Shown here: in pieces, positions 1 through 10,501 of the stretch
How the letters are laid out: the number at the start of each line of letters is the position of its first letter
Position numbering within the stretch: position 1 is the first letter of the stretch
Source of the DNA: a virus
Virus genome (UHGV): UHGV-1356964
Length of the DNA stretch: 10,501 bases
Direction: 5' to 3' (one strand)
Notes under the pieces: model-generated
Told to the model about the DNA's origin: nothing
Database searches by the model: none
The model's input: only the letters and a program-made list of their open reading frames with translations
Program-made: the position numbers and the translations under genes

Positions 1-1025
1 GTAAGGAGAAAATCCTGACCGTCGGAAAATATCCGCTTATGACTTTGCAGGAGGCAAGGGATAAAGCATGGACTGCGAGGAAAGAGATCTCGGTTGGCAT
101 CGATCCGGTAAAGGCGAAATAGGCTTCGTCTAACAACAATTCCTTTAGCGCCATTTACAAGGAATGGTACGAGCACAAGAAGCAAGTCTGGTCAGTAGGA
201 TATGCAAATGAACTTGCAAAAATGTTTGATGACGACATTTTACCCATCATCGGCGGTCTTGAAATTCAGGATATTGAGCCGATGCAACTACTGGAAGTAA
301 TCCGCAGATTTGAAGATCGCGGTGCAATGGAGCGAGCAAATAAAGCCCGCAGAAGATGCGGCGAGGTTTTCCGTTACGCTATTGTCACCGGAAGGGCTAA
401 ATATAACCCGGCACCTGACCTTGCAGACGCCATGAAAGGATACCGCAAGAAGAACTTCCCGTTTCTTCCAGCAGACCAGATCCCTGCATTCAACAAAGCA
501 CTGGCAACATTTTCAGGAAGCATCGTATCGCTCATTGCGACCAAAGTTTTACGCTACACAGCCCTAAGAACGAAAGAGCTTCGTTCCATGCAATGGAAGA
601 ACGTCGATTTTGAAAACAGGATTATCACCATCGACGCCAGTGTGATGAAGGGTCGCAAAATTCATGTGGTTCCTATGTCAGACCAGGTGGTTGAACTTCT
701 CACTACGCTAAGCTCAATCACTAAACCAGTATCAGAGTTTGTTTTTGCCGGTCGCAACGATAAGAAGAAGCCAATCTGCGAGAACGCGGTATTACTTGTG
801 ATCAAACAAATCGGCTATGAAGGTCTGGAAAGCGGTCACGGATTCAGGCATGAATTCAGCACGATTATGAACGAGCACGAATGGCCTGCTGACGCGATTG
901 AGGTGCAACTGGCACATGCCAACGGCGGATCTGTGCGCGGGATTTACAACCATGCTCAGTATCTCGATAAGCGCAGAGAAATGATGCAGTGGTGGGCGGA
1001 CTGGCTTGATGGGAAGGTGGAGTGA
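1..1025 (+). pseudogene. int: Tyrosine integrase (P4/IntS-like), 5' end outside window, interrupted by in-frame TAG at 120-122; longest intact ORF is 222-1025
   Basis: The frame starting at position 3 reads KEKILTVGKYPLMTLQEARDKAWTARKEISVGIDPVKAK, then TAG (120-122), then ASSNNNSFSAIYKEWYEHKKQVWSVGYANELAKMFDDD, continuing without a frame change into the 267-aa ORF 222-1025. That ORF carries tyrosine-recombinase hallmarks (HGFRHEF for the H-x-x-R box, LAHANGGSVRGIYNHAQY with the C-terminal Tyr). Integrase-like sequence on both sides of a single stop in one frame indicates a nonsense mutation, or an amber-suppressed gene, not a true gene end. Stop is TGA at 1023-1025. Confidence 0.75.
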
Positions 1026-1306
1026 TCCACCTTAACTATCGAATGACATAAAGCCTTGCAATCCAGTACAAAGCTTTGCGTTTCTCAGTTTTGCCTCAAG
1101 TGGATACAAATACCACCACCTGATGTGGTACATATCATTACATGTAAATAATTATATGATCACGAACTTACTAAAATATAAACATCACAACCCCATACAT
1201 TTATCACCTAAGTGCTTGACAAATGGCAAATGGTTTTGCAATCTTTCTTTAATTAGCATGATGTTCATGCTACTATTTGTAGAATATTTTTCAAATATGG
1301 TGATAT

Positions 1307-1615
1307 ATGTTTAAATACTTGTTTTTTATACTTACCTTTATGGTTAGTAATTCATCAAGCGCAAAGATAAATGAAATAGTATGTGGTTCTCATCTTGTTA
1401 AAGTTAACACATCAAATGCGTCCAAAGTGCATCTAGATGATGTAGAATTTAGCCTTGAAAAAGAATTTTTTAACGAGGCTCGTTCTCTTGATTATATATC
1501 TATTGATAAAGAAAAATTCACTTTAACTGAGTTTTATTCTGGTGATTATAGTATAACAATACAATCACCAGAAACTAAAAAAAGAGATATTATTATGTGC
1601 AAGTTGTTACGTTAA
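1307..1615 (+). CDS. Hypothetical small secreted protein (102 aa, signal-peptide-like N-terminus), AT-rich cargo
   Basis: ATG at 1307 with GGTGA a few nt upstream. N-terminus MFKYLFFILTFMVSNSSSA looks like a cleavable signal peptide, followed by a hydrophilic ~80-aa domain. A 102-codon open frame in ~28% GC DNA is unlikely by chance because stops are frequent there. The ORF converges on and overlaps the stop of the neighbouring - strand gene (1607-1615), which lowers confidence. Confidence 0.35.
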   Translation: MFKYLFFILTFMVSNSSSAKINEIVCGSHLVKVNTSNASKVHLDDVEFSLEKEFFNEARSLDYISIDKEKFTLTEFYSGDYSITIQSPETKKRDIIMCKLLR

Positions 1616-2725
1616 CGCTTTGTTCTTATTTGAAATTGCACATATCATAGCAATAGCCATATAAAACACAGCAAAAAACGGCAGGCTAATTTTTAAAGAT
1701 GATAGCAACATCATTAGCTTTGCCCTTTTTGTTATTTTAATTTTAATTATAAAAACACAATATAATACTATGCATAATACTCCAAATGGAAGACCGAATA
1801 TTGTAATAAAGTTTCCAAATATAGTCATATCATATAACGACTCATAAAATGATGGCGCAGATTCTGACTTACCAATCAAACCATAACCAAAAATATATAA
1901 ATTTTGATTTCCAATAAAATCAAGAATGGTCTCTATCTTTATATTATTGCTACCATCAGCCCCAGATAGAAATAAAACAATCCTGTCATTTACAATATTT
2001 AAAACAGAAAGATACCCAATCACAAATATTGCTATCACTGGGATAATCATCCTAATTCTCATCATGCCAACACATAGCATGAGAAAGCAAAGAAATATTC
2101 CAACAAATGACAATGTAAACGTCATTGAAACGCATGACAGTAAAAACAAATAATCAATCTTTTTATTAATTGCATATCGTAACGTAATTAACCACGCTGT
2201 TATTCCGCAATATACACTTGGTTCTGCAGTTAGCCCTGTTGGCCTAAACCCAACTCCAGTCATCATATTTCTTGATGGTTCACCACCAATTAGCATAGAG
2301 TAGTCAACAATAGAACCAAATAAAAGTTTCGATACTACTTGAATAAATAAAGAGAGTATGAAAACTACTAGCGCTGCATTTATGGATCTCTCTAAAGTAT
2401 CTTTATCCACCCCCTTACATCCAACATATAACAAGTATGACGACACCACCCAAATTATTACTTTAAGCGTCTGTGATAATAATATCTCATTATGCTTTGA
2501 TATATAAACTTGGATAAATGAACTTATTATAACAATAGATACCACCATTATTATAAATAATAATGACTGATACGTCATTTTACTTACACTTTTTGCGTAT
2601 AAAAAAAGGCATGCGAATGGAAATAGGAATAGTTGTACACCATAAACTGTCACCGGAGATGCTAAATCTATAATTACACCAATTACTGCAATAAAAAGGA
2701 AAAAGGCACTCATGTTAACCACCAT
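1607..2725 (-). CDS. Polytopic inner-membrane protein, Wzy/EpsG-like (candidate O-antigen polymerase / serotype-conversion protein)
   Basis: 372-aa ORF with about 10 hydrophobic helix-length segments separated by short loops, one with GGEPSRNMMTGVGFRPTGLTAEPS. Very low GC. It lacks the N-terminal motif I associate with acyltransferase-3 O-acetylases, and its size fits Wzy-type polymerases (350-450 aa). It sits in the int-tailspike slot that P22-like phages use for O-antigen modification genes. The start may be the second ATG (2711-2713), which has GGTGG 5 nt upstream. Function is inferred from topology and context only. Confidence 0.6.
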   Translation of the reverse strand: MVVNMSAFFLFIAVIGVIIDLASPVTVYGVQLFLFPFACLFLYAKSVSKMTYQSLLFIIMVVSIVIISSFIQVYISKHNEILLSQTLKVIIWVVSSYLLYVGCKGVDKDTLERSINAALVVFILSLFIQVVSKLLFGSIVDYSMLIGGEPSRNMMTGVGFRPTGLTAEPSVYCGITAWLITLRYAINKKIDYLFLLSCVSMTFTLSFVGIFLCFLMLCVGMMRIRMIIPVIAIFVIGYLSVLNIVNDRIVLFLSGADGSNNIKIETILDFIGNQNLYIFGYGLIGKSESAPSFYESLYDMTIFGNFITIFGLPFGVLCIVLYCVFIIKIKITKRAKLMMLLSSLKISLPFFAVFYMAIAMICAISNKNKALT

Positions 2726-2742
2726 GATTTTGAATTTGCGAT

Positions 2743-2771
2743 ATTGTACAATGAGCGCCTTTGCTATGCAA
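2743..2771 (-). promoter_or_regulatory. Candidate sigma70 promoter for the Wzy-like gene
   Basis: On the - strand: -35 TTGCAT (reverse complement of 2766-2771), 17-bp spacer, -10 TACAAT (reverse complement of 2743-2748), directly after the tailspike stop and 18-30 nt upstream of the candidate starts. The -10 lies inside a perfect 10-bp palindrome ATTGTACAAT (2743-2752). Confidence 0.3.
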
Positions 2772-2772
2772 T

Positions 2773-4821
2773 TTATAAATATTTCAAGACAAACATCATG
2801 AGCTCATCATATCTTACACCATATCTGTCACCGAAATCAGTTTCGTCTTTGCACCAGAACCCATACTTTTCAGGATTTAACCCATTATTGCGCATTATGA
2901 CGCCAACCGTTTGCGCCCCGACACCAAAATGATAACGCGCGTTACCACCTTTACTTCTGATGCTCTCTTTCAGCTTGTACCTGTAAATACATTTTCTTAT
3001 TTCATTTGCCGCTTGTTTTTCTTTCAATAAAAGATCATCTGAACATCCGCATGGTTCTTTCATTGATTCATCTGATGTAGTTATTACACCTGTGGTAGAA
3101 TATATTGCTGACCATCTTTTTGTTGTATCGCCTAATGCCGTATCTGAGTCACCTTCAGGAGCTAATCTATTATAGCCACTAATAAGAAGGTCATTTTTTG
3201 GGAGCTCTTTTGATACTCCACCATCAGTTGATGTTAATTTAACGCCTCTTGTTCCAGGTATACTTTTTATTTCAATGCCTGCCTCTGATGTTCCTATTAT
3301 CTGTAGATCGGAATTTTTATTTCTACCATCCTGAAATGGAAGTTCAAAAACATTAGATGTAAATCTCCAATCCGTATCAGAATAAAGCTCGGCTGGTGAC
3401 GAGTTATCGCGCTGTATTATAATGGCACCTTTTCCGCTATCTCGTCTCCGACAACCGGCAATGTTTGCTTGGTTGGGATCCATATTTGAGCTAACCAACA
3501 CACCATCAAACTGAGATATGCTTTCGTAATTATTAGCTCCTTGCCGCTGTGCACTTTCACTTATATAAACCCATGCCCAATCAAAATGGTTCTCATAACT
3601 TCCAACGTTCAGGTCAATCTGATACGGACGAGTGCACAACTCGCCAAAAAACCCACGGAAGTGGATATTACCTGCCACTGATGTATCACTGTTCACCGTC
3701 TTAACAATACGTACTGCGCATGGCACGTCTGCAGGCCAATTGCCCAGAGTGATATTCTCGGAGTGGCCACCAAACACGCGCAAAGAGTCGGTAGACTCAA
3801 TCCAAAAACTACAATTTCCCGTGGCATGATGGGGGTTATATATATGTATGCGCGTATTATTATTATCGCCACTGACGCTGCGTTCAAAATAAAACCCACA
3901 GTCTACACGCTCAAAGTTAGGGTTCATAATTGAGTGGTAGTACGAGCCGCTGTTTTCACCTGATACTGTTGGTCCCGGCTTGAATTTCAGTCCGACTTTT
4001 ACTCCCCTTGCACGTGGATTCTCCATTACACAAAATTGCTGTGACACACGCATGGTTGCCTGAGATTCGTCTTCAGGAGCAATGGCGTAGGCAATAACGT
4101 CAGAGTAGTTATCTGGGTTAATTACTACAGGATTGATTATGTGGCAGAAATCATGGCTCATTCTTAAACATGTAATTCCCGAGTCTCCTGCTACGATTGT
4201 TGTACCAGTAAAATCAATATACCGTGTAGATGTAACATCCTGTGTATACGAGCCATCGAACTTCATTACAAGACTTTGTGTTATGCGATATATCGCACCT
4301 ACTCTCCCTGTTAATTTACCAAAAGGTATTCCTTCGAGCCATGCTAATGCTGATAACATAGATGTGGTGTCGTCAACAATCCCATCACCAATTGCCCCAA
4401 ACTCTTCAAATGTTTTAATGGCTGTCGCCCGATGCGCTATCTGATCAATTGTTGAGCCATATTTTGTTAGACTCTGCCTTAGCTGATCAGGATCATACTT
4501 CAGCACGTTTGGAAAATAGAACTGCTGTGCACCATACGCATCATAAACAGCCATAGAATGACCTTGCACCGTAACAAACTTGGCAATCTGTCCGTTATAT
4601 ACAGGGTAACCAGCAGAATTGATAATGATTGGTTGCGAAACAGGAATGTGAGATCCGTCTTCGTTCTCTACATAAACCTGAATCTGGTTTTCAGGATTTA
4701 CCGGGTCAGTATCAATTTTACCGATATAAATTTTGCCATTGGCTACGGCTTTAAAAGAACGCGCCATAGTGAAGAGTTGCGAAGGCATACTCACTACAAC
4801 ATTGGCTGTAATGTCTGTCAT
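2773..4821 (-). CDS. Tailspike protein (P22/Sf6-type head-binding domain, beta-helix-like receptor-binding domain, C-terminal intramolecular-chaperone-like domain)
   Basis: The N-terminus [61 protein letters not shown]...VLKYDPDQ matches, from memory, the conserved head-binding domain of P22-family tailspikes. The central region is Gly/Asn/Ser/Thr/Asp-rich with many aromatics, typical of a beta-helix glycanase. The C-terminus has TSDESMK, fitting the S-D-x-x-x-K Ser/Lys motif of self-cleaving chaperone domains. GGAG lies 8 nt upstream of the ATG at 4819-4821. Confidence 0.93.
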
Positions 4822-4877
4822 TTAATTTGCTCCAGATACAAGGAATCGCCGCAGCGGGACTACGGTGAATTTTGGGC

Positions 4878-4902
4878 ATAAAAAACCCAGCCGAAGCTGG
4901 GT
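4878..4902 (-). terminator. Intrinsic terminator (- strand) upstream of the tailspike gene
   Basis: The - strand transcript would form a 7-bp stem (ACCCAGC / GCUGGGU) with a 4-nt loop, followed by UUUUUAU (reverse complement of + 4878-4884). On the + strand the stem is followed by CGTTGCG, so it is not a + strand terminator. Confidence 0.55.
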
Positions 4903-4953
4903 CGTTGCGTTGGTTATCTGTCAGTAGTTATGTACTGGCTGAAGGATTTGTAC

Positions 4954-4983
4954 AAAAAACCACCTGACGGTGGGTTAATTTTT
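4954..4983. terminator. Hairpin with flanking A and T runs (bidirectional terminator candidate; stronger on - strand)
   Basis: Stem CCACC (4960-4964), loop TGAC, stem GGTGG (4969-4973). On the + strand it is followed by GTTAATTTTT; on the - strand by UUUUUUG (reverse complement of AAAAAA at 4954-4959). The stem is short (5 bp). Confidence 0.45.
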
Positions 4984-5001
4984 GCATTTACCTGGGCCAT
5001 A

Positions 5002-5030
5002 TTGACTACTCATAAAATGAGATCAATATT
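5002..5030 (+). promoter_or_regulatory. Candidate sigma70 promoter for the small basic-protein gene
   Basis: -35 TTGACT (5002-5007), 17-bp spacer, -10 AATATT (5025-5030), about 37 nt upstream of the ATG at 5067. The spacer contains the inverted repeat CTCAT-AAA-ATGAG (5009-5021), a possible operator. The -10 is weak. Confidence 0.3.
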
Positions 5031-5066
5031 TAATCGCCCAATAACGGGTGCATGTTGAGGTATATC

Positions 5067-5246
5067 ATGGCGAAAAAACCAGGTGAAAACACAGGAAAAA
5101 ACGGCGGAATATACCAAGAAGTTGGCCCACGCGGCGGTAAGAAAGACAATTTTGCCACCGTCAAGGACAACGAAAGGCTTCCACCAACAACAAAGCCAGG
5201 TCATGGCTGGGTATTGGATAAGCGAACTCCAGACAGCAAAAAGTAA
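5067..5246 (+). CDS. Small basic Gly/Lys/Pro-rich protein (59 aa), function unknown
   Basis: ATG at 5067 with GAGG 6 nt upstream; the track's 5052 start is probably an upstream in-frame ATG without a ribosome-binding site. Product: MAKKPGENTGKNGGIYQEVGPRGGKKDNFATVKDNERLPPTTKPGHGWVLDKRTPDSKK. A + strand terminator follows immediately (5253-5275). I could not place the family from memory. Confidence 0.6.
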   Translation: MAKKPGENTGKNGGIYQEVGPRGGKKDNFATVKDNERLPPTTKPGHGWVLDKRTPDSKK

Positions 5247-5252
5247 TAATCA

Positions 5253-5275
5253 AGCCGGTTCACTCCGGCTTTTTG
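5253..5275 (+). terminator. Intrinsic terminator after the small basic-protein gene (overlaps the 3' end of the convergent peptidase gene)
   Basis: Stem AGCCGG (5253-5258), 6-nt loop TTCACT, stem CCGGCT (5265-5270), followed by TTTT (5271-5274), 7 nt after the TAA at 5244-5246. On the - strand the same hairpin is followed by a moderately U-rich tract, so it may also serve the convergent gene. Confidence 0.6.
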
Positions 5276-5625
5276 ATATGTTGCTCGCAGAACTCAACAA
5301 GCCTGCTCATTAAGTAGCAGTAAGTCTCGTTGGCTCTTCCTGGTTCAACATCAACACCTACCCTTGAGCAGATATCGAATGCCATGTGAGCGCACTCATG
5401 GGCAATAGTAGATAGTTTGCCATTGAACACGCCTATCACATGCAAAACACCATTCTCGCTACTCATTGTATGAGACGCTCCGTTGGCGTCCGAGTCATGC
5501 ACGTCAACGCCAAGTTTTTGATGCAGGCGTTGCCATTCTGGAAAGTCTCTACAAAACACAATTGTACCGCTCTCAAAGAGCGGAACGAGCATCTTTGGTA
5601 CGTTTCCAATGTTAACTTTTTTCAT
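5260..5625 (-). CDS. Small HEXXH zinc-metallopeptidase-like protein, ImmA/IrrE (DUF955)-like, 121 aa
   Basis: The motif KLSTIAHECAHMAF (x-T-[LI]-A-H-E-x-x-H) is followed about 15-25 residues later by VEPGRANETYCYLMS, which resembles the E-x-x-A-N-x-[FY]-x-x-x-L-[LM] segment after the HEXXH in ImmA/IrrE-type peptidases. AGGA lies 4 nt upstream of the ATG. There is no adjacent helix-turn-helix partner gene. Confidence 0.75.
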   Translation of the reverse strand: MKKVNIGNVPKMLVPLFESGTIVFCRDFPEWQRLHQKLGVDVHDSDANGASHTMSSENGVLHVIGVFNGKLSTIAHECAHMAFDICSRVGVDVEPGRANETYCYLMSRLVEFCEQHIKKPE

Positions 5626-5659
5626 GGTATCCTGCGAAAAACTAAGGAGAGTTAATTAT

Positions 5660-6145
5660 ATGAAAAAATCACTGTTAATTATCCCGCTTCTGCTGGCTGG
5701 GTGCGCAAAAGTAAGCGACTATCAGGCAAGTTGCGAGCAACGCTATCCAAAGCTTAGCGATATGGCTAATTGCCTTGATGCCAGCTTGAAGAACGACTCT
5801 CGCATGGCATCAGCACCAACACCTAAGCTGTATGTCCTTGCTGCGAAGATGCTCGGGCAAGGTGTCGATGAAGGCAAGATAAGTGACACACAGGCAAGAC
5901 TTGAACTTCAGAATCTTTATGTTCAATTACAAAGCCAAGAACAAGCACAACAAATAGCACAAAGCCAAGCATTCCAGCAGGCTTTATTGAATTATCAGGC
6001 TGTAAACACAATGCAAGCGATCGAGCAAAAAGCGCGCCAGCCTGTTATAACTCAACCTTACCCAACACGCGTTGACACATATACAAACTGCAATTCAGGA
6101 TTTGGAAACACGGTAACATGCAACAGTAGCAGTAATATCAGGTAG
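5660..6145 (+). CDS. Lipoprotein (161 aa; lipobox LAGC, Ala at +2, Gln-rich middle region)
   Basis: ATG at 5660 preceded by AAGGAG (5644-5649). N-terminus MKKSLLIIPLLLAGCAKVS is a classical type II signal peptide with lipobox L-A-G-C. The track's longer ORF from 5609 would overlap the divergent peptidase gene start and lacks a ribosome-binding site. The mature protein is Gln/Ala-rich with a Cys-containing C-terminal tail (TNCNSGFGNTVTCNSSSNIR). Confidence 0.8.
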   Translation: MKKSLLIIPLLLAGCAKVSDYQASCEQRYPKLSDMANCLDASLKNDSRMASAPTPKLYVLAAKMLGQGVDEGKISDTQARLELQNLYVQLQSQEQAQQIAQSQAFQQALLNYQAVNTMQAIEQKARQPVITQPYPTRVDTYTNCNSGFGNTVTCNSSSNIR

Positions 6146-6159
6146 TTATATCTTATCTT

Positions 6160-8007
6160 TTATTGCTGTTCTGCTGTAATTTGGCTTGAAAGTATAGGGC
6201 GTATCGCATTTGCAGCATTATTTAGCGCTCTTTCATAGGCTGGTGTTCCTGCTTTGGTGTTTGCCAGACGTAAGAGAGCATTCCTTGCTGCTTTGGACTC
6301 ATACAAGCGCATCATTGCACCGAAACCAGCCTCAAGCCCCATTGATACGCCAAGAGTCGCAGTTGCGCCAATCGTCCTTATCCTGTTGGCTTGCGATTGC
6401 CCCGTCTGAGTTACTACATTTGCGGTGTCTGACCTTGCTGTTTGCTGTAGAACTTCATGAAGAGCATCAAGCTCTTTCATGTGCTTTCCTGAAAAAATAG
6501 TGTTGTAAATTTCACCGCCTGACTGAGATTTCAGCTTATTAACTTCAGTGATGAACTTGGCTGGAGAGTCACCGGCCTTTTCCGCTATTTTGCTGACGTA
6601 AGCTGCACGCATAGCATCTTTCCCTTTATCATCCAGTGCGCTCCAGATTCGTTTCACGTCAGATGGTTTTCTGCTTAATACAACGGTATTTATAAGTTCA
6701 GGACTGGCTTCACTGCTTGCCTTGTTGAGCTTGTTAGCAATGTTTTTATTAAGCACCTTATTATAAACGTTTGCATAATCGGAATTTGCTTTAAGGTATT
6801 TTGCTGCGTCTGATGCACCGAGGTTTTTTGCAACTGCGTTACGAAGATCTTTTGACATTGCATTCTCTACCATATTGGTAGCTGCTTTTGCCTGGTTGGG
6901 GAAGACCATAGCATCTCCCTGAACATTAGATCTAAATGCTGTTCTGTGCTGACGCAAGAGATCAAACGTAACATCCAAATCAGTTGCAGGGTTTGCTAAT
7001 TCTTCACGTAGGTTACGCAAGGATGTAAGCAGGCTTTGATTGGCAGACGTCCCAAGCCGTTCCTGTCTTGCGATCGCTGTATTCAGAGCATTCATGGTAT
7101 TTGTGGTATCAACTGCGGCATTACCCATTTTATTGGTAACGTCATTGATAACAGCGCCAGCGGCATCCTTCCGTCCCCTTAACGTGGTGGTCAGAGATTT
7201 CACCACATCATCCGGGTTGTACTCACCAAAACGGTCAAAATAATTACTTACCAACTTACTACGCGTTGCATATTGCTCCGCTCGCTTTGAGCCTGTCCCG
7301 AGCAAAGCCCCCTCGGCATCCTGAGTTAGGCCGCGAGTGAAAGCATTTTTCGGCGGGATAACATCAGATGTCATTGGTGTCACGCCCATCGATTCTGATG
7401 TGGCAATTTTCTTCGCCACTTCTGGCGCAATATCACCTTTTATAGCCGTTATTCCACGCCCTATTCCCTTTGCTGCTGCGGAAAGAACACCCTGAGTGGC
7501 AAGGTTAACTCCGGCATTTTTAGCTGCATTTTGTGCGAAATCGCCTTTCTGATTTGTGGCCTCTGCCAGTGAGCCAATAGCCATGCTTCCTGCCGTTCCA
7601 ACTCCTGGAACTAAATACCCACCAATTGTTTCACCGGCTTGCGCGTAAGGGTCTGTCGGTCGATCGACAGGGCGATAAACATCATCCAAAACCTTGGGGC
7701 CACCAAGCCCCTGGCTGATTGCATTAATCAGGCTTGCGCCGCCCTGTAATACGTCGAATGGTATATTTACCAGACCACGACCTGCCTGTTCTGCAATTTG
7801 CCCTGCACTTTGACCACCAGTGAGCCAATCGCCAGCTTGTTGCATCAATGAAGGTTCTTCACGTGCTGGTTCATTATTGGCCTGATTAACTGTTTGTTGC
7901 TGAACAGCCTGACCAGCAAAATACTCATCAATGGCGGTGCCAATATCTTCCGTGCTCGTACCATCAGGAAAGGTAAATGTCTTACCGTTTGCAGTTACTT
8001 TCATCAT
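6160..8007 (-). CDS. Ejection (DNA-injection) protein, P22 gp16-like
   Basis: 615-aa ORF, last gene of a tightly packed - strand operon. Its start overlaps the stop of the upstream gene (ATGATGA at 8001-8007). Size and position match P22 gene 16 (609 aa); composition is Ala/Gly/Asn/Thr-rich as expected for ejection proteins. The assignment is by synteny and size, not sequence identity. Confidence 0.88.
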
Positions 8008-9410
8008 TCCACCGTAAATTGAATGCCTGATTTTGATGTATATGATCCAACCTGATTCCGTGGTTCTCCTGAAGGTGTCGAATCTTGTGCTGGCGCTGCG
8101 TCAGTATTCATTGACATATACCGCTTAACGGCACTCCCCAATGATTCACCTTTTTTAACATCCAACCCCAATATCTGACCGCCATTACGCGATTGTCCTG
8201 GGTTGCCATTCGCGCTCATCCACTCGGCTTTAAACTCATTAAACTGCGCGTTTCGTCGCTCAAGGTTTGCCATAGCATCAAGCCATCTTGCGACCGTCTC
8301 AGGGTTATCCATGTCAGTTGGTGCACCCTGCCGAACGATCTCAACATCTTTATCCGTTGCGGGGCCGGGAGGTAGGAATTTAAGAACCTGACTGTTAACA
8401 AGGGCATTTTGGCGAATGCGCAAATCACGCAATGTCGTATCGCTTCCGGTAAGTTTTGCGAACATGTTCTGTGCGTTACCGAACAAACCTGTCGTTGGTT
8501 TTTCTGCTCTGAACTGTTGAGCAAGCGCACTCATAGAATTGGCTGAGTTTGATGATGCTGTGGCATTGTTTACAGCCGTCTCGATGCCTTTTTCCATGTT
8601 TACTGACAGCTTAGGTGCTTCGCTAATCAACTGCTGAGCCTTTTCCTGCGCTTGCTGCATCTTAAACCCGAACTCTTGCTGATCCAGAGCCAAGCGTTGT
8701 GCTGCGATATTGTGCCCAGTCATTGCTGACTGATAGGAAAGGTTTTGCCCTCTCGCCTGAAGTGCCTCGCCAGCCTGATTGCTGCGGATTGTCTCTGCCA
8801 GTCTGCCTCGGTCAATTTCACGACCAGCCATTTTGTCCTGAACATTGAAGTAATCAATCGGACCAAGAGCAGCCATCCCAAGGTGATCAACAAACTCACC
8901 AAATCCTGAAGGATTCTGCTGATACATCTGAGCAACGCTGTTAGGGTCAACACCGACGCGAGTCAGTTCCTTGGCGTTGTTTTGCAGCCATGATTGCATT
9001 GCTTCTGGAGACGATGACGCAAGGCGTGCGCCAGCCGCTAAGGTGCCGATAGAATTACGCTGGTCTTCATCAATGAATCCCATGCCTTTACGAACGGATT
9101 CAATCTGGTCTGGATATTGAGTAGCCAACTGACGCAAAGCACCGCGATCACCAGACGCATAAGCATTAGCGTACGCCTGCTGAAATTCTTTCTGTCGCTG
9201 AGCCTGCTTTTCCTGCTGAAACACCCCTGCAATACCTGAAAGACCTTGCAAAGCAGTCAGCCCAACATTGTTAGCGCCTGAACGCTCAATATCATTGTTC
9301 TGCCTGATAAGCTGAAGCGTATTGCCGATGTCATTTACGCTCGGAGCGTTTGAGTTGACGCCGCCGATACCAGCTAACAATCCGCCATTTGATCCTTGCC
9401 AAGTAGCCAT
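8004..9410 (-). CDS. Ejection protein, P22 gp20-like
   Basis: 468-aa ORF between the gp7-like and gp16-like genes; size matches P22 gene 20 (471 aa). GGGG lies about 7 nt upstream of the ATG, and the stop overlaps the downstream gene's start (translational coupling). Confidence 0.88.
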
Positions 9411-9419
9411 GATTACCCC

Positions 9420-10112
9420 TTAAAACAACGAGCCAAGCAATCCGATACCAGCACCAATGCCAGCGCCCCAAGGTGTTGATGTTCCCAAAAGGCTGGCAAG
9501 ACCTGCACCGGCAATCGCACCAGACGTGCCACCGCTAATTGCAGTCTGAAGACTTGATGGTTTATTGGCATTAGCAGCGGCAAGAGCTGCGCTTTGCTGT
9601 GCAATGCTGCTCATGTTGTTGGCGTACGTCTGCCCGGCGTTTGCCTGACCTTGCAGCGCACCAAGCCCAACGTTTGCCAGATTGTTGTAATTGCTCATCT
9701 GGTTTGATAACCAAGACTGACCGAGAGTCGGCGCGATCGTAGCCAGTTGATTGCTTGTGGCTGTCGAACCAAGTCCACCCGTCGCCTCCGCAGCAGCAAG
9801 ACTCTGGTAGCGAGCCTGACCTGCAAGGTCTTTATACTGCTGAGAATTGTAATACTGATTAAGTGCCTGCCCCTGACCTTCTAAACTGGAAAGGTTCTGA
9901 AGCTGGTTAACATACTGCTCCGCAAGCGGCGTGAACGGAGCAAGGTTTTTCATGATCGTCTGCCACTGCTGATTTTGCAGGTCTGCTGCATACTTCTGAG
10001 CTTCTGCGGCATACTTTGCGCTTTTATCAGAACTGCCACCTTTCCCACCTTTTTCAGGGCAATAAGGTTCCTCGCCGCGCAGTTTTCTGCCCAGCTTAAA
10101 TGCATATAACAT
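9420..10112 (-). CDS. Ejection protein, P22 gp7-like
   Basis: 230-aa ORF (P22 gene 7 is 229 aa). Gln/Ala/Asn-rich with a Gly-rich hydrophobic C-terminus (GAGIGAGIGLLGSLF). GGGAG lies 6 nt upstream of the ATG; the gene abuts the upstream ORF's stop. Confidence 0.88.
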   Translation of the reverse strand: MLYAFKLGRKLRGEEPYCPEKGGKGGSSDKSAKYAAEAQKYAADLQNQQWQTIMKNLAPFTPLAEQYVNQLQNLSSLEGQGQALNQYYNSQQYKDLAGQARYQSLAAAEATGGLGSTATSNQLATIAPTLGQSWLSNQMSNYNNLANVGLGALQGQANAGQTYANNMSSIAQQSAALAAANANKPSSLQTAISGGTSGAIAGAGLASLLGTSTPWGAGIGAGIGLLGSLF

Positions 10113-10114
10113 GG

Positions 10115-10501
10115 CTATCTCCCGTGATTCAGGAAGTCGATTAGTTCTTCGCGTGTGGCGCTGTAAAAAGTCACGTCATCCACGCCTTTAAAGTATTTCT
10201 TGATGGTTCCGACACGCTTAAGGCCAATCATTGCGCAGTAAATCTGCCCGTGGCGGAATTTGCGTGCGGCGAACGATGTGACGCACTGAACGGTGGTGTT
10301 AGTCAGAATGTATCGCCAGAACGCCAGCCCGATTTCCTTGCTGAAGCCGCGAATCTCTGGCAGGTACATGGCGTGGCAATCGAATGTCAGCGGCTGAATC
10401 TCCTGATAGTAAACAATTCCGCCGAACTGCCCGTGCACGTTCACCTCAAAGTAACGGCATTCAGGCTTGTAGTCGTATCCATCACCGTTGTTGCTCCCGG
10501 C
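10115..10501 (-). CDS. P22 gene-14-like protein, 3' portion (5' end beyond window)
   Basis: The reading frame is open from the window edge (10501) down to TAG at 10115-10117. The track's start at 10444 is a GTG, and the frame stays open upstream of it, so the gene most likely starts outside the window. Its position immediately upstream of the gp7-like gene corresponds to gene 14 in the P22 order 26-14-7-20-16. Assignment is by synteny. Confidence 0.75.
   Translation of the reverse strand, partial: AGSNNGDGYDYKPECRYFEVNVHGQFGGIVYYQEIQPLTFDCHAMYLPEIRGFSKEIGLAFWRYILTNTTVQCVTSFAARKFRHGQIYCAMIGLKRVGTIKKYFKGVDDVTFYSATREELIDFLNHGR

Follow-up and report, generated by a model that had tools for sequence, protein, structure and literature searches.

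What kind of cargo does a P22-like prophage carry when the slot between its integrase and tailspike genes holds neither gtrABC nor oac? This question is raised by the UHGV virus genome UHGV-1356964, of which a stretch of 10,501 nucleotides (the window) was analysed. Here an AT-rich island separates the two genes (Table 1) and encodes a membrane protein together with a small convergent partner. Polymerase-replacement seroconversion is textbook knowledge for Salmonella phage epsilon15 and Pseudomonas phage D3, and the original prediction, made from the letters of the window alone, had placed a Wzy-like polymerase in the island and suggested that the prophage may alter the O-antigen of its host by supplying this enzyme. 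Our analysis makes it probable that a serotype-conversion cassette resides in a P22-like prophage at the argW site of O166 Escherichia coli, that the island forms its cargo half and that the polymerase encoded there alters the O-antigen linkage. Judged from sequence and genomic context, the cassette most likely rewrites the O-antigen that is used as the phage receptor.

Three open reading frames (ORFs) lie in the island, of 63 aa (1123-1314, +), 102 aa (1307-1615, +) and 372 aa (1607-2725, −). As had been noted, the slot lacks the usual genes: Pfam and NCBIfam detected no gtrA, gtrB, gtrC or acyltransferase-3 domain in any of these ORFs. The assignment to the P22-like phages also held, with P22-type ejection proteins encoded past the tailspike and, in the RefSeq annotation of near-identical copies in complete carrier genomes, an intS gene adjoining tRNA-Arg argW. 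In P22-like phages the slot usually holds gtrABC or acyltransferases (PMC8787464), and acyltransferase genes occupy it in other E. coli genomes.

Homology of the membrane protein

The 372-aa ORF has about 10-11 membrane helices by hydropathy and in an AlphaFold2 (AF2) model, close to the 10 or so that had been predicted. We take the ATG at 2713 as its start (368 aa), this being the RefSeq start and a codon conserved in diverged relatives; RefSeq labels both island genes 'hypothetical protein'. Direct hidden Markov model searches, which had been proposed as a check of the polymerase assignment, gave no match of the window protein to Pfam Wzy_C (PF04932), EpsG (PF14897) or TIGR04370, even at E ≤ 1. 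Curated models miss many Wzy proteins, with only 150 of 363 seed polymerases falling in CAZy families (PMC10920833). An unrelated identity, such as a transporter or an abortive-infection protein, had been named as the outcome that would overturn the assignment, and no match pointing to transport or defence was obtained. Identities as an Oac, a Gtr, a transporter or a defence system were each considered and rejected, with no match of any kind.

The close family of the window protein comprises 13 clusters among 5.8 billion proteins, and a profile of this family retrieved 395 representative relatives at E ≤ 1e-3. A third homologue search with a broad profile yielded two more usable proteins, and a scan of genome contigs returned two loci. 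The alignment and profile used here contain 122 sequences, which share 15-77% identity with the window protein. Pfam Wzy_C is matched by 19 of these 122 relatives (best E 2.3e-10); it was absent from a first sample of 10 distant relatives, and a second sample gave three weak matches in the region equivalent to residues ~190-290. In HHalign comparisons, the 122-sequence profile aligned with the colanic-acid polymerase WcaD (probability 87%, E 3.8e-6) and with epsilon15 gp21 (probability 77%, E 2e-5), while the controls K-12 WaaL, host Wzy and host Wzx reached at most 1.3% (0.1-0.3% for K-12 WaaL). A close relative from Salmonella bongori bears the UniRef name 'O-antigen polymerase'.

The genomic context of the non-phage relatives was uniform, since all five examined occupy the wzy position of Wzx-dependent polysaccharide clusters. 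These are a cpxA-secB O-antigen cluster with wzx, a glycerophosphotransferase and three GT4 genes; an Acinetobacter K locus; a Vibrio vulnificus capsule locus with wzc, wzx and an initiating transferase; a contig of wzx-GT4-X order; and a Vibrio parahaemolyticus locus. In the first three, which are whole clusters, the relative is the sole otherwise unassigned membrane protein, and the other two contigs end close to the gene. Together with the predicted fold described below, the WcaD and gp21 profile matches, the Wzy_C hits among relatives and the wzy-position genes support the Wzy-like reading of the original prediction. They point to a family of Wzy-type repeat-unit polymerases, not catalogued before, to which the window protein belongs.

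The phage-borne polymerase genes are mutually mosaic, as seen when P0002, P0004 and P0005 are aligned with the window protein. The first half of P0002 resembles P0004 and P0005 and its second half resembles the window protein, and P0004 switches to window sequence near residue 305. Because the copies are mosaics, recombination has probably occurred within the polymerase gene.

Predicted fold and signature residues

The AF2 model of the window protein (predicted local distance difference test (pLDDT) 75.6; predicted template modelling score 0.80) shares its fold with WaaL and the SEDS proteins, the ligase WaaL being the top structural match, and Foldseek returned the same two matches at the top. 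By this model, the fold of the polymerase family is of the WaaL/SEDS (GT-C_B) type. Loops 137-168 and 255-311 are predicted to be periplasmic because the opposite loops are rich in Lys and Arg (positive-inside rule). Two large predicted periplasmic loops and about 10-11 membrane segments match the topology expected of a Wzy protein, for which about 10-12 helices are usual.

Residues R161, E168, P169 and G311 are invariant in all 122 sequences, followed by G164 and R/K263 (121 of 122 each), G280 (120), Q129 and S206 (119 each), R152 (113), G282 (110), R248 (106), G315 (101), S259 (100), D257 (92) and D299 (87). The signature residues sit in loops 137-168 and 255-311, where the invariant R161 and E168 give the family a conserved Arg and a conserved acidic residue on the predicted periplasmic side. 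The pattern R/K263-X16-GxG, followed by D299-X11-G311-X3-G315, is the counterpart of GN1 and GN2, the published motifs of Wzy_C-type polymerases (PMC12502699). No His is invariant across the 122 sequences; an Asp is found near the position of the Wzy_C-type His, and the same substitution has been described for inverting polymerases of the WaaL/SEDS clan in a CAZy study (PMC10920833).

With a ligase as its top structural match and WcaD as its best profile match, the protein might be thought to act on another glycan, such as O-antigen capsule, colanic-acid or enterobacterial common antigen units, or to be a WaaL/PglL-like ligase that transfers to a different acceptor. We consider this quite unlikely, because the ligase family needs a catalytic His (PMC10920833) and this family has none that is invariant, and because its profile shows no similarity to K-12 WaaL. 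Moreover, the five chromosomal relatives stand in the wzy position of O-antigen or capsule clusters rather than at core-lipopolysaccharide (waa) loci, the phage copies lie between int and tailspike genes, and the window gene shows strict linkage to a tailspike of O-antigen type and to a single O-genotype. A WaaL-ligase identity was rejected on this polymerase-type genomic context, the lack of a conserved His and the K-12 WaaL comparison.

A secreted partner encoded in convergent orientation

Neither the partner gene nor the cassette structure described below figured in the original prediction. In the 102-aa product, signal cleavage is predicted to follow SSA at residue 19, and cysteines C26 and C98 are invariant. 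Homologues with 33-34% identity are encoded at two other loci, L011 and L020, in the same convergent, 3′-overlapping position, and near-identical copies are present at L012 and L021. The word-index homologue search retrieved near-identical copies only, and the diverged ones came from local tblastn of neighbouring loci. The homologues share 26 invariant columns, including the motif FTLTE..SG.Y...QSP, and all have an N-terminal hydrophobic signal with a terminal small-x-Ala site. Conservation of this kind marks the 102-aa ORF as a genuine gene, kept as a partner of the polymerase gene. The signal and the two invariant cysteines suggest that the mature partner is a secreted protein of ~83 residues, probably disulfide-bonded.

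The partner occurs beside phage-borne polymerase genes only and is absent at all five cluster-borne copies. Searches of Pfam, NCBIfam and PHROGs and a defence-family scan gave no family match, and a single-sequence structure model (pLDDT 38) was too poor to use. The lack of a known function for the partner, together with the absence of any other glycan enzyme from the island, could suggest a pair of proteins that interfere without catalysis, by sequestering undecaprenyl pyrophosphate (Und-PP)-linked units or by blocking Wzy, Wzz or DNA entry. The Gnarl proteins, small phage proteins that perturb O-antigen synthesis, set a precedent for such action by small proteins alone (PMC12373910). This explanation is nonetheless very improbable, given that the family-wide signature residues are all retained in the phage copies despite only 57-77% identity, that no defence-family match was found, and that the relatives replace Wzy in biosynthetic clusters.

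A cassette that includes the tailspike receptor-binding domain

At L011, L012 and L020, a tailspike receptor-binding part is followed by a polymerase-like gene and a partner gene. Identity to the window is 72% at L011, 80% at L012 (whole tailspike) and 73% at L020. Three N-terminal adaptors precede this unit: the P22 Head_binding domain, Tail_spike_N at L011, where the contig carries Dit- and baseplate-type genes, and a third type at L020. Because the trio recurs behind three tailspike N-termini, the mobile unit is likely to consist of the receptor-binding domain, the polymerase and the partner. Within E. coli, the receptor-binding part was found in exactly the five genomes that bear the island.

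The candidate promoter that the original prediction had assigned to the membrane protein gene received a divided answer. A consensus scan listed 12 promoter-like sites against 12.2 expected by chance and did not list the element at 2743-2771; the promoter and terminator consensus scan was at chance level overall in this AT-rich DNA. On the other hand, the TTGCAT-17-TACAAT element is present upstream of the gene at four diverged loci, including a Salmonella bongori remnant, with both hexamers invariant and the spacer variable. Its -35 hexamer begins one base past the tailspike stop codon. Given this conservation, the element is a reasonable candidate for a lysogenic promoter.

The Salmonella bongori remnant (L004-L007; for example, FR877557.1, 528-529 kb) holds an intact, 57%-identical polymerase-like gene in an otherwise decayed island, next to an insertion sequence element, an integrase fragment and an acyltransferase-3 gene. 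The last tailspike codons are kept there along with the TTGCAT-17-TACAAT element.

The island has a GC content of 0.311, close to that of the host O-antigen gene cluster (0.303; host wzy, 0.276), and its gene is truncated or degraded in two E. coli genomes (below), as might be expected of a decaying passenger, that is, low-GC DNA from an O-antigen cluster without function in the prophage. Both ORFs are, however, intact in at least five diverged phage contexts with their order, overlap and upstream element conserved, and the partner keeps 26 invariant columns at 33-34% identity. Of the explanations weighed here, we hold this one to be the least probable.

Counterparts of the receptor-binding domain with 60-68% identity were also observed in the ~157 kb Salmonella and E. 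coli phages 38, SS3, SS9, SeKF_64 and PhaxI, and a further one in the 41-kb phage vB_EcoS_P1338. These counterparts suggest that phages of very different types share one and the same circulating module of receptor specificity.

Occurrence in O166 hosts

The polymerase gene has no homologue in 50,697 phage records, the island itself is likewise missing from the phage collection, and it is present in 5 of 5426 complete E. coli genomes, which bears out the view that it is unusual for this phage group. Strains MLI104K1, E7476 and O166:H15 JNE21-009 carry the full-length gene; in OZ197100 it is truncated (267 aa), and MLI104K2 has a decayed copy (89% identity). The O166 wzy gene is found in all four genomes with at least 97% of the island, against 18 of 5426 genomes overall. 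Finding it in all four would nominally have a probability of ~1e-10 by chance, a figure to be read with the caveat that the strains are not independent samples. Because the island is missing from further O166:H15 isolates of the Japanese series that includes JNE21-009, it appears to be a variable accessory within O166. JNE21-009, which has it, and JNE21-003 and JNE070796, which do not, thereby offer natural near-isogenic pairs differing in the island.

MLI104K2 is without the O166 wzy gene. Its degraded island and tailspike (NZ_CP116925.1, ~1451-1455 kb; 89-93% identity) lie in several pieces with no annotated genes, a decay that would fit a non-cognate O-antigen background.

The host O-antigen cluster of JNE21-009 is complete, in the order galF-wzx-GT2-wzy-GT4-GT-GT-galE-gnd, and the host O166 Wzy belongs to the EpsG family (1.5e-30). 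The comparison with the host's own wzy, which had also been proposed, revealed no pairwise or profile similarity to the phage protein. The putative phage Wzy is unrelated and additional to the host Wzy, as in epsilon15 and D3. In MLI104K1 the host wzy is a pseudogene (L015, 3001-4073; NZ_CP116923.1): the loss of one C at gene position 731, in sequence that is not a homopolymer run, truncates the product near residue 243 of 357. This strain could have the phage polymerase as its sole functional one, and the frameshift, although a single case, fits functional replacement.

The same frameshift would also suit a redundant or back-up polymerase, one that forms the same linkage as the host enzyme or restores the O-antigen where host wzy is broken and so maintains smooth lipopolysaccharide (LPS). 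That all carriers are O166 is in keeping with such a role as well, since Wzy enzymes are specific for their repeat unit. We nevertheless regard a back-up role as unlikely. The phage and host enzymes belong to unrelated families, of WaaL-like fold and EpsG type, respectively, and in other systems a difference in family is accompanied by a difference in stereochemistry (PMC10920833, PMC4815439). The host wzy is full-length in three carriers, and restoring the receptor of the phage's own tailspike would give no superinfection exclusion. The strict linkage of the gene to one tailspike receptor-binding domain and to O166 hosts adds plausibility to a changed O-antigen linkage that would affect the phage's own tailspike.

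Comparison with known systems

Phage epsilon15 of Salmonella (group E1) is a temperate podovirus in which the polymerase gp21 and the alpha-polymerase inhibitor gp22 are encoded directly beside the tailspike gp20, an arrangement that resembles the one described here. The profile comparison makes gp21 a remote homologue of the window family (HHalign over residues 104-323) that shares Q129, S206, R248, R/K263, FGxG and the position of the HN motif. There is, however, no pairwise tblastn similarity, and gp21 matches the ligase family directly, whereas the window protein matches no curated model. In the alignment, the invariant R161...E168-P169 loop of the window family falls in a gap of gp21, and an Asp stands where the gp21 His aligns. 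The second proteins differ altogether: gp22 is a 66-aa two-helix membrane peptide encoded on the same strand as gp21, whereas the partner here is 102 aa, secreted, convergent and unrelated.

Phage D3 of Pseudomonas (iap, wzy-beta, oac) likewise supplies a second polymerase of the O-antigen-ligase superfamily. Wzy-beta, a Wzy_C-type inverting polymerase, works with the small inhibitor Iap, which silences the host enzyme; it has two large periplasmic loops and essential Arg residues, comparable to the predicted loops and conserved Arg residues of the window protein, and its product replaces that of an unrelated host Wzy (PMC4815439). D3 differs in being a siphovirus whose unit is unlinked to a tailspike and also needs an O-acetylase, an enzyme that the island does not encode. 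Iap is a short hydrophobic peptide, and Wzy-beta has an essential His300, whereas the window family has no conserved His. In place of a small membrane-peptide inhibitor of the Iap or gp22 kind, the island encodes the secreted 102-aa protein.

Among chromosomal enzymes, WcaD shares R-x-T-x-L-x-x-E-P, the LS-S-G helix and R...G-x-[DE]-G-S with the window family, but it is a housekeeping polymerase acting on a different repeat unit and only ~100 columns align. WaaL (7TPG/7TPJ) and the SEDS proteins FtsW and RodA share the predicted fold; they differ in that the window family occurs in a polymerase context and shows no sequence or profile similarity to K-12 WaaL. The gtrABC and oac genes of P22, Sf6, Sf101 and CPS-53 have the same int-tailspike slot, phage type, kind of attachment site and presumed purpose. 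They act by side-chain glucosylation or acetylation, as opposed to the backbone polymerisation proposed here, and have no homology to the island genes. What is new relative to these precedents is an uncatalogued polymerase family, a soluble secreted partner, convergent genes, a cassette that moves across phage types together with the receptor-binding domain, an E. coli host and a phage of the P22-like type.

Proposed mechanism

Based on these comparisons, we propose a plausible mechanism for seroconversion by the cassette. In the lysogen, a promoter of its own, situated immediately past the tailspike stop codon, would drive the polymerase gene. The phage enzyme would then act on Und-PP-linked O166 units that host glycosyltransferases have assembled and host Wzx has flipped, joining them by an inter-unit linkage unlike that of the host Wzy. 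The enzyme is probably inverting and beta-forming, by analogy with Wzy_C-type and WaaL-like polymerases (PMC4815439, PMC10920833). With its backbone altered, the polymer would escape binding and cutting by the linked tailspike, so that the lysogen would be shielded from superinfection and released virions would not be wasted on the debris of lysed cells. In Pseudomonas, a second polymerase without an inhibitor gives mixed polymers (PMC4815439). The partner most plausibly acts in the periplasm, where it may silence the resident Wzy, the part played by Iap in D3 and by gp22 in epsilon15, or assist the phage polymerase; this is the least certain step of the model, and no resemblance of the partner to Iap, gp22 or the Gnarl proteins was found.

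A bolder form of the proposal, which we offer as tentative and rather doubtful, is that of a mobile cassette, complete in itself, which recognises the receptor and also rewrites it, hops between unrelated tail architectures and brings with it a new periplasmic factor analogous to Iap and gp22. As a soluble, disulfide-bonded protein, the partner would in that case switch off the EpsG-type Wzy or redirect the hand-off from Wzz and Wzx to the phage enzyme.

Several observations weigh against seroconversion by polymerase replacement. The window protein has no match in Pfam, NCBIfam, PHROGs, PADLOC or PDB sequences (the last also searched with two profiles), its links to WcaD and epsilon15 gp21 are remote, and loop 143-158, which includes R152, has the lowest confidence in the model (pLDDT <50). 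The partner gives an HHalign probability of 0.3% with gp22 and does not resemble inhibitors of the Iap type, and it is missing beside the polymerase gene of Salmonella bongori. Truncation in OZ197100 and decay in MLI104K2 indicate that the phage gene is dispensable. An apparently intact host wzy is present in three of the four carriers, and a host range dictated by the tailspike could by itself account for the O166 association. We know of no O166 sub-factor of the kind expected from such a conversion. Finally, when the tailspike-integrase ORF of the related argW phage Kapi1 was expressed or deleted, LPS was unchanged (PMC8787464); the dissimilarity of that ORF to the window protein is taken from the null result in the phage collection, in which the presence of Kapi1 is unconfirmed.

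In a review of E. coli O-antigens, polymerase replacement is merely hypothesised, for the O118/O151 pair (PMC7685785). The bolder form of the proposal, if true, would make the cassette the first documented polymerase-replacement seroconversion in E. coli and imply an unrecognised structural subtype of O166. If the cassette works as proposed, O166 strains, including enterotoxigenic and outbreak lineages, would exist in two backbone variants that are invisible to wzx/wzy genotyping, with consequences for serotyping, vaccine antigens and the host range of phage therapy. A function would be assigned to a polymerase family of several hundred representatives that has no curated model, and the secreted partner would be a new candidate regulator of the Wzy step. 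Linkage of a receptor-binding domain to the enzyme that modifies its receptor would keep the two specificities matched during mosaic exchange.

Feature map, composition and neighbouring genes

Table 1. Coordinates of the cassette and adjoining features in the 10,501-nucleotide window
Feature	Position	Strand	Remarks
IntS-type tyrosine integrase gene, 3′ part	1..1025	+	window begins inside the gene; Pfam Phage_integrase 7.6e-40
AT-rich cargo island	1026..2772		between integrase and tailspike
Partner gene, 102 aa	1307..1615	+	Sec-type signal peptide; convergent with polymerase gene
3′-end overlap of polymerase and partner genes, 9 nt	1607..1615		also in L011, L012, L020 and L021
Candidate Wzy-type repeat-unit polymerase gene, 368 aa	1607..2713	−	longest ORF to 2725 (372 aa)
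Candidate sigma-70 promoter of polymerase gene	2743..2771	−	-35 TTGCAT 2766-2771, 17-nt spacer, -10 TACAAT 2743-2748
Tailspike receptor-binding part, residues 114-682	2773..4482	−	C-terminal chaperone-like end, weak Peptidase_S74 match
P22-type head-binding N-terminal domain of tailspike	4483..4821	−	Pfam Head_binding 1.1e-66; outside the mobile cassette

The GC content is 0.478 on the integrase side of the island and 0.479 at 4822-10501, and 1747-bp stretches starting past position 4000 all stay at or above 0.434. The sharp drop after the integrase stop codon had been described from hand counts, which proved exact (0.30 at 1101-1160, 0.233 at 1741-1800 and 0.60 at 9001-9060). The recovery that had been placed in the tailspike is partial only, this gene having a GC content of 0.416 as compared with 0.479 beyond it.

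A search of the whole window against Rfam gave no match. The 63-aa ORF, which sits upstream of the partner gene and overlaps its start, was rejected as a gene: it is probably not one, because its conservation is limited to near-identical DNA and L011 lacks a counterpart. At 1254-1272 there is a hairpin with a T-run after it.

Between the tailspike and the gp16-type ejection gene, positions 5010-6145 form a region of small accessory genes with unassigned functions. It contains ORFs of 64 aa (phrog_3202) and 121 aa (minus strand, phrog_1365) and a lipoprotein-like ORF with a conserved part from MKKSLLIIPLLLAGC (phrog_6067). Because the position of the region matches that of P22 sieA/immI, these ORFs are candidate exclusion genes.

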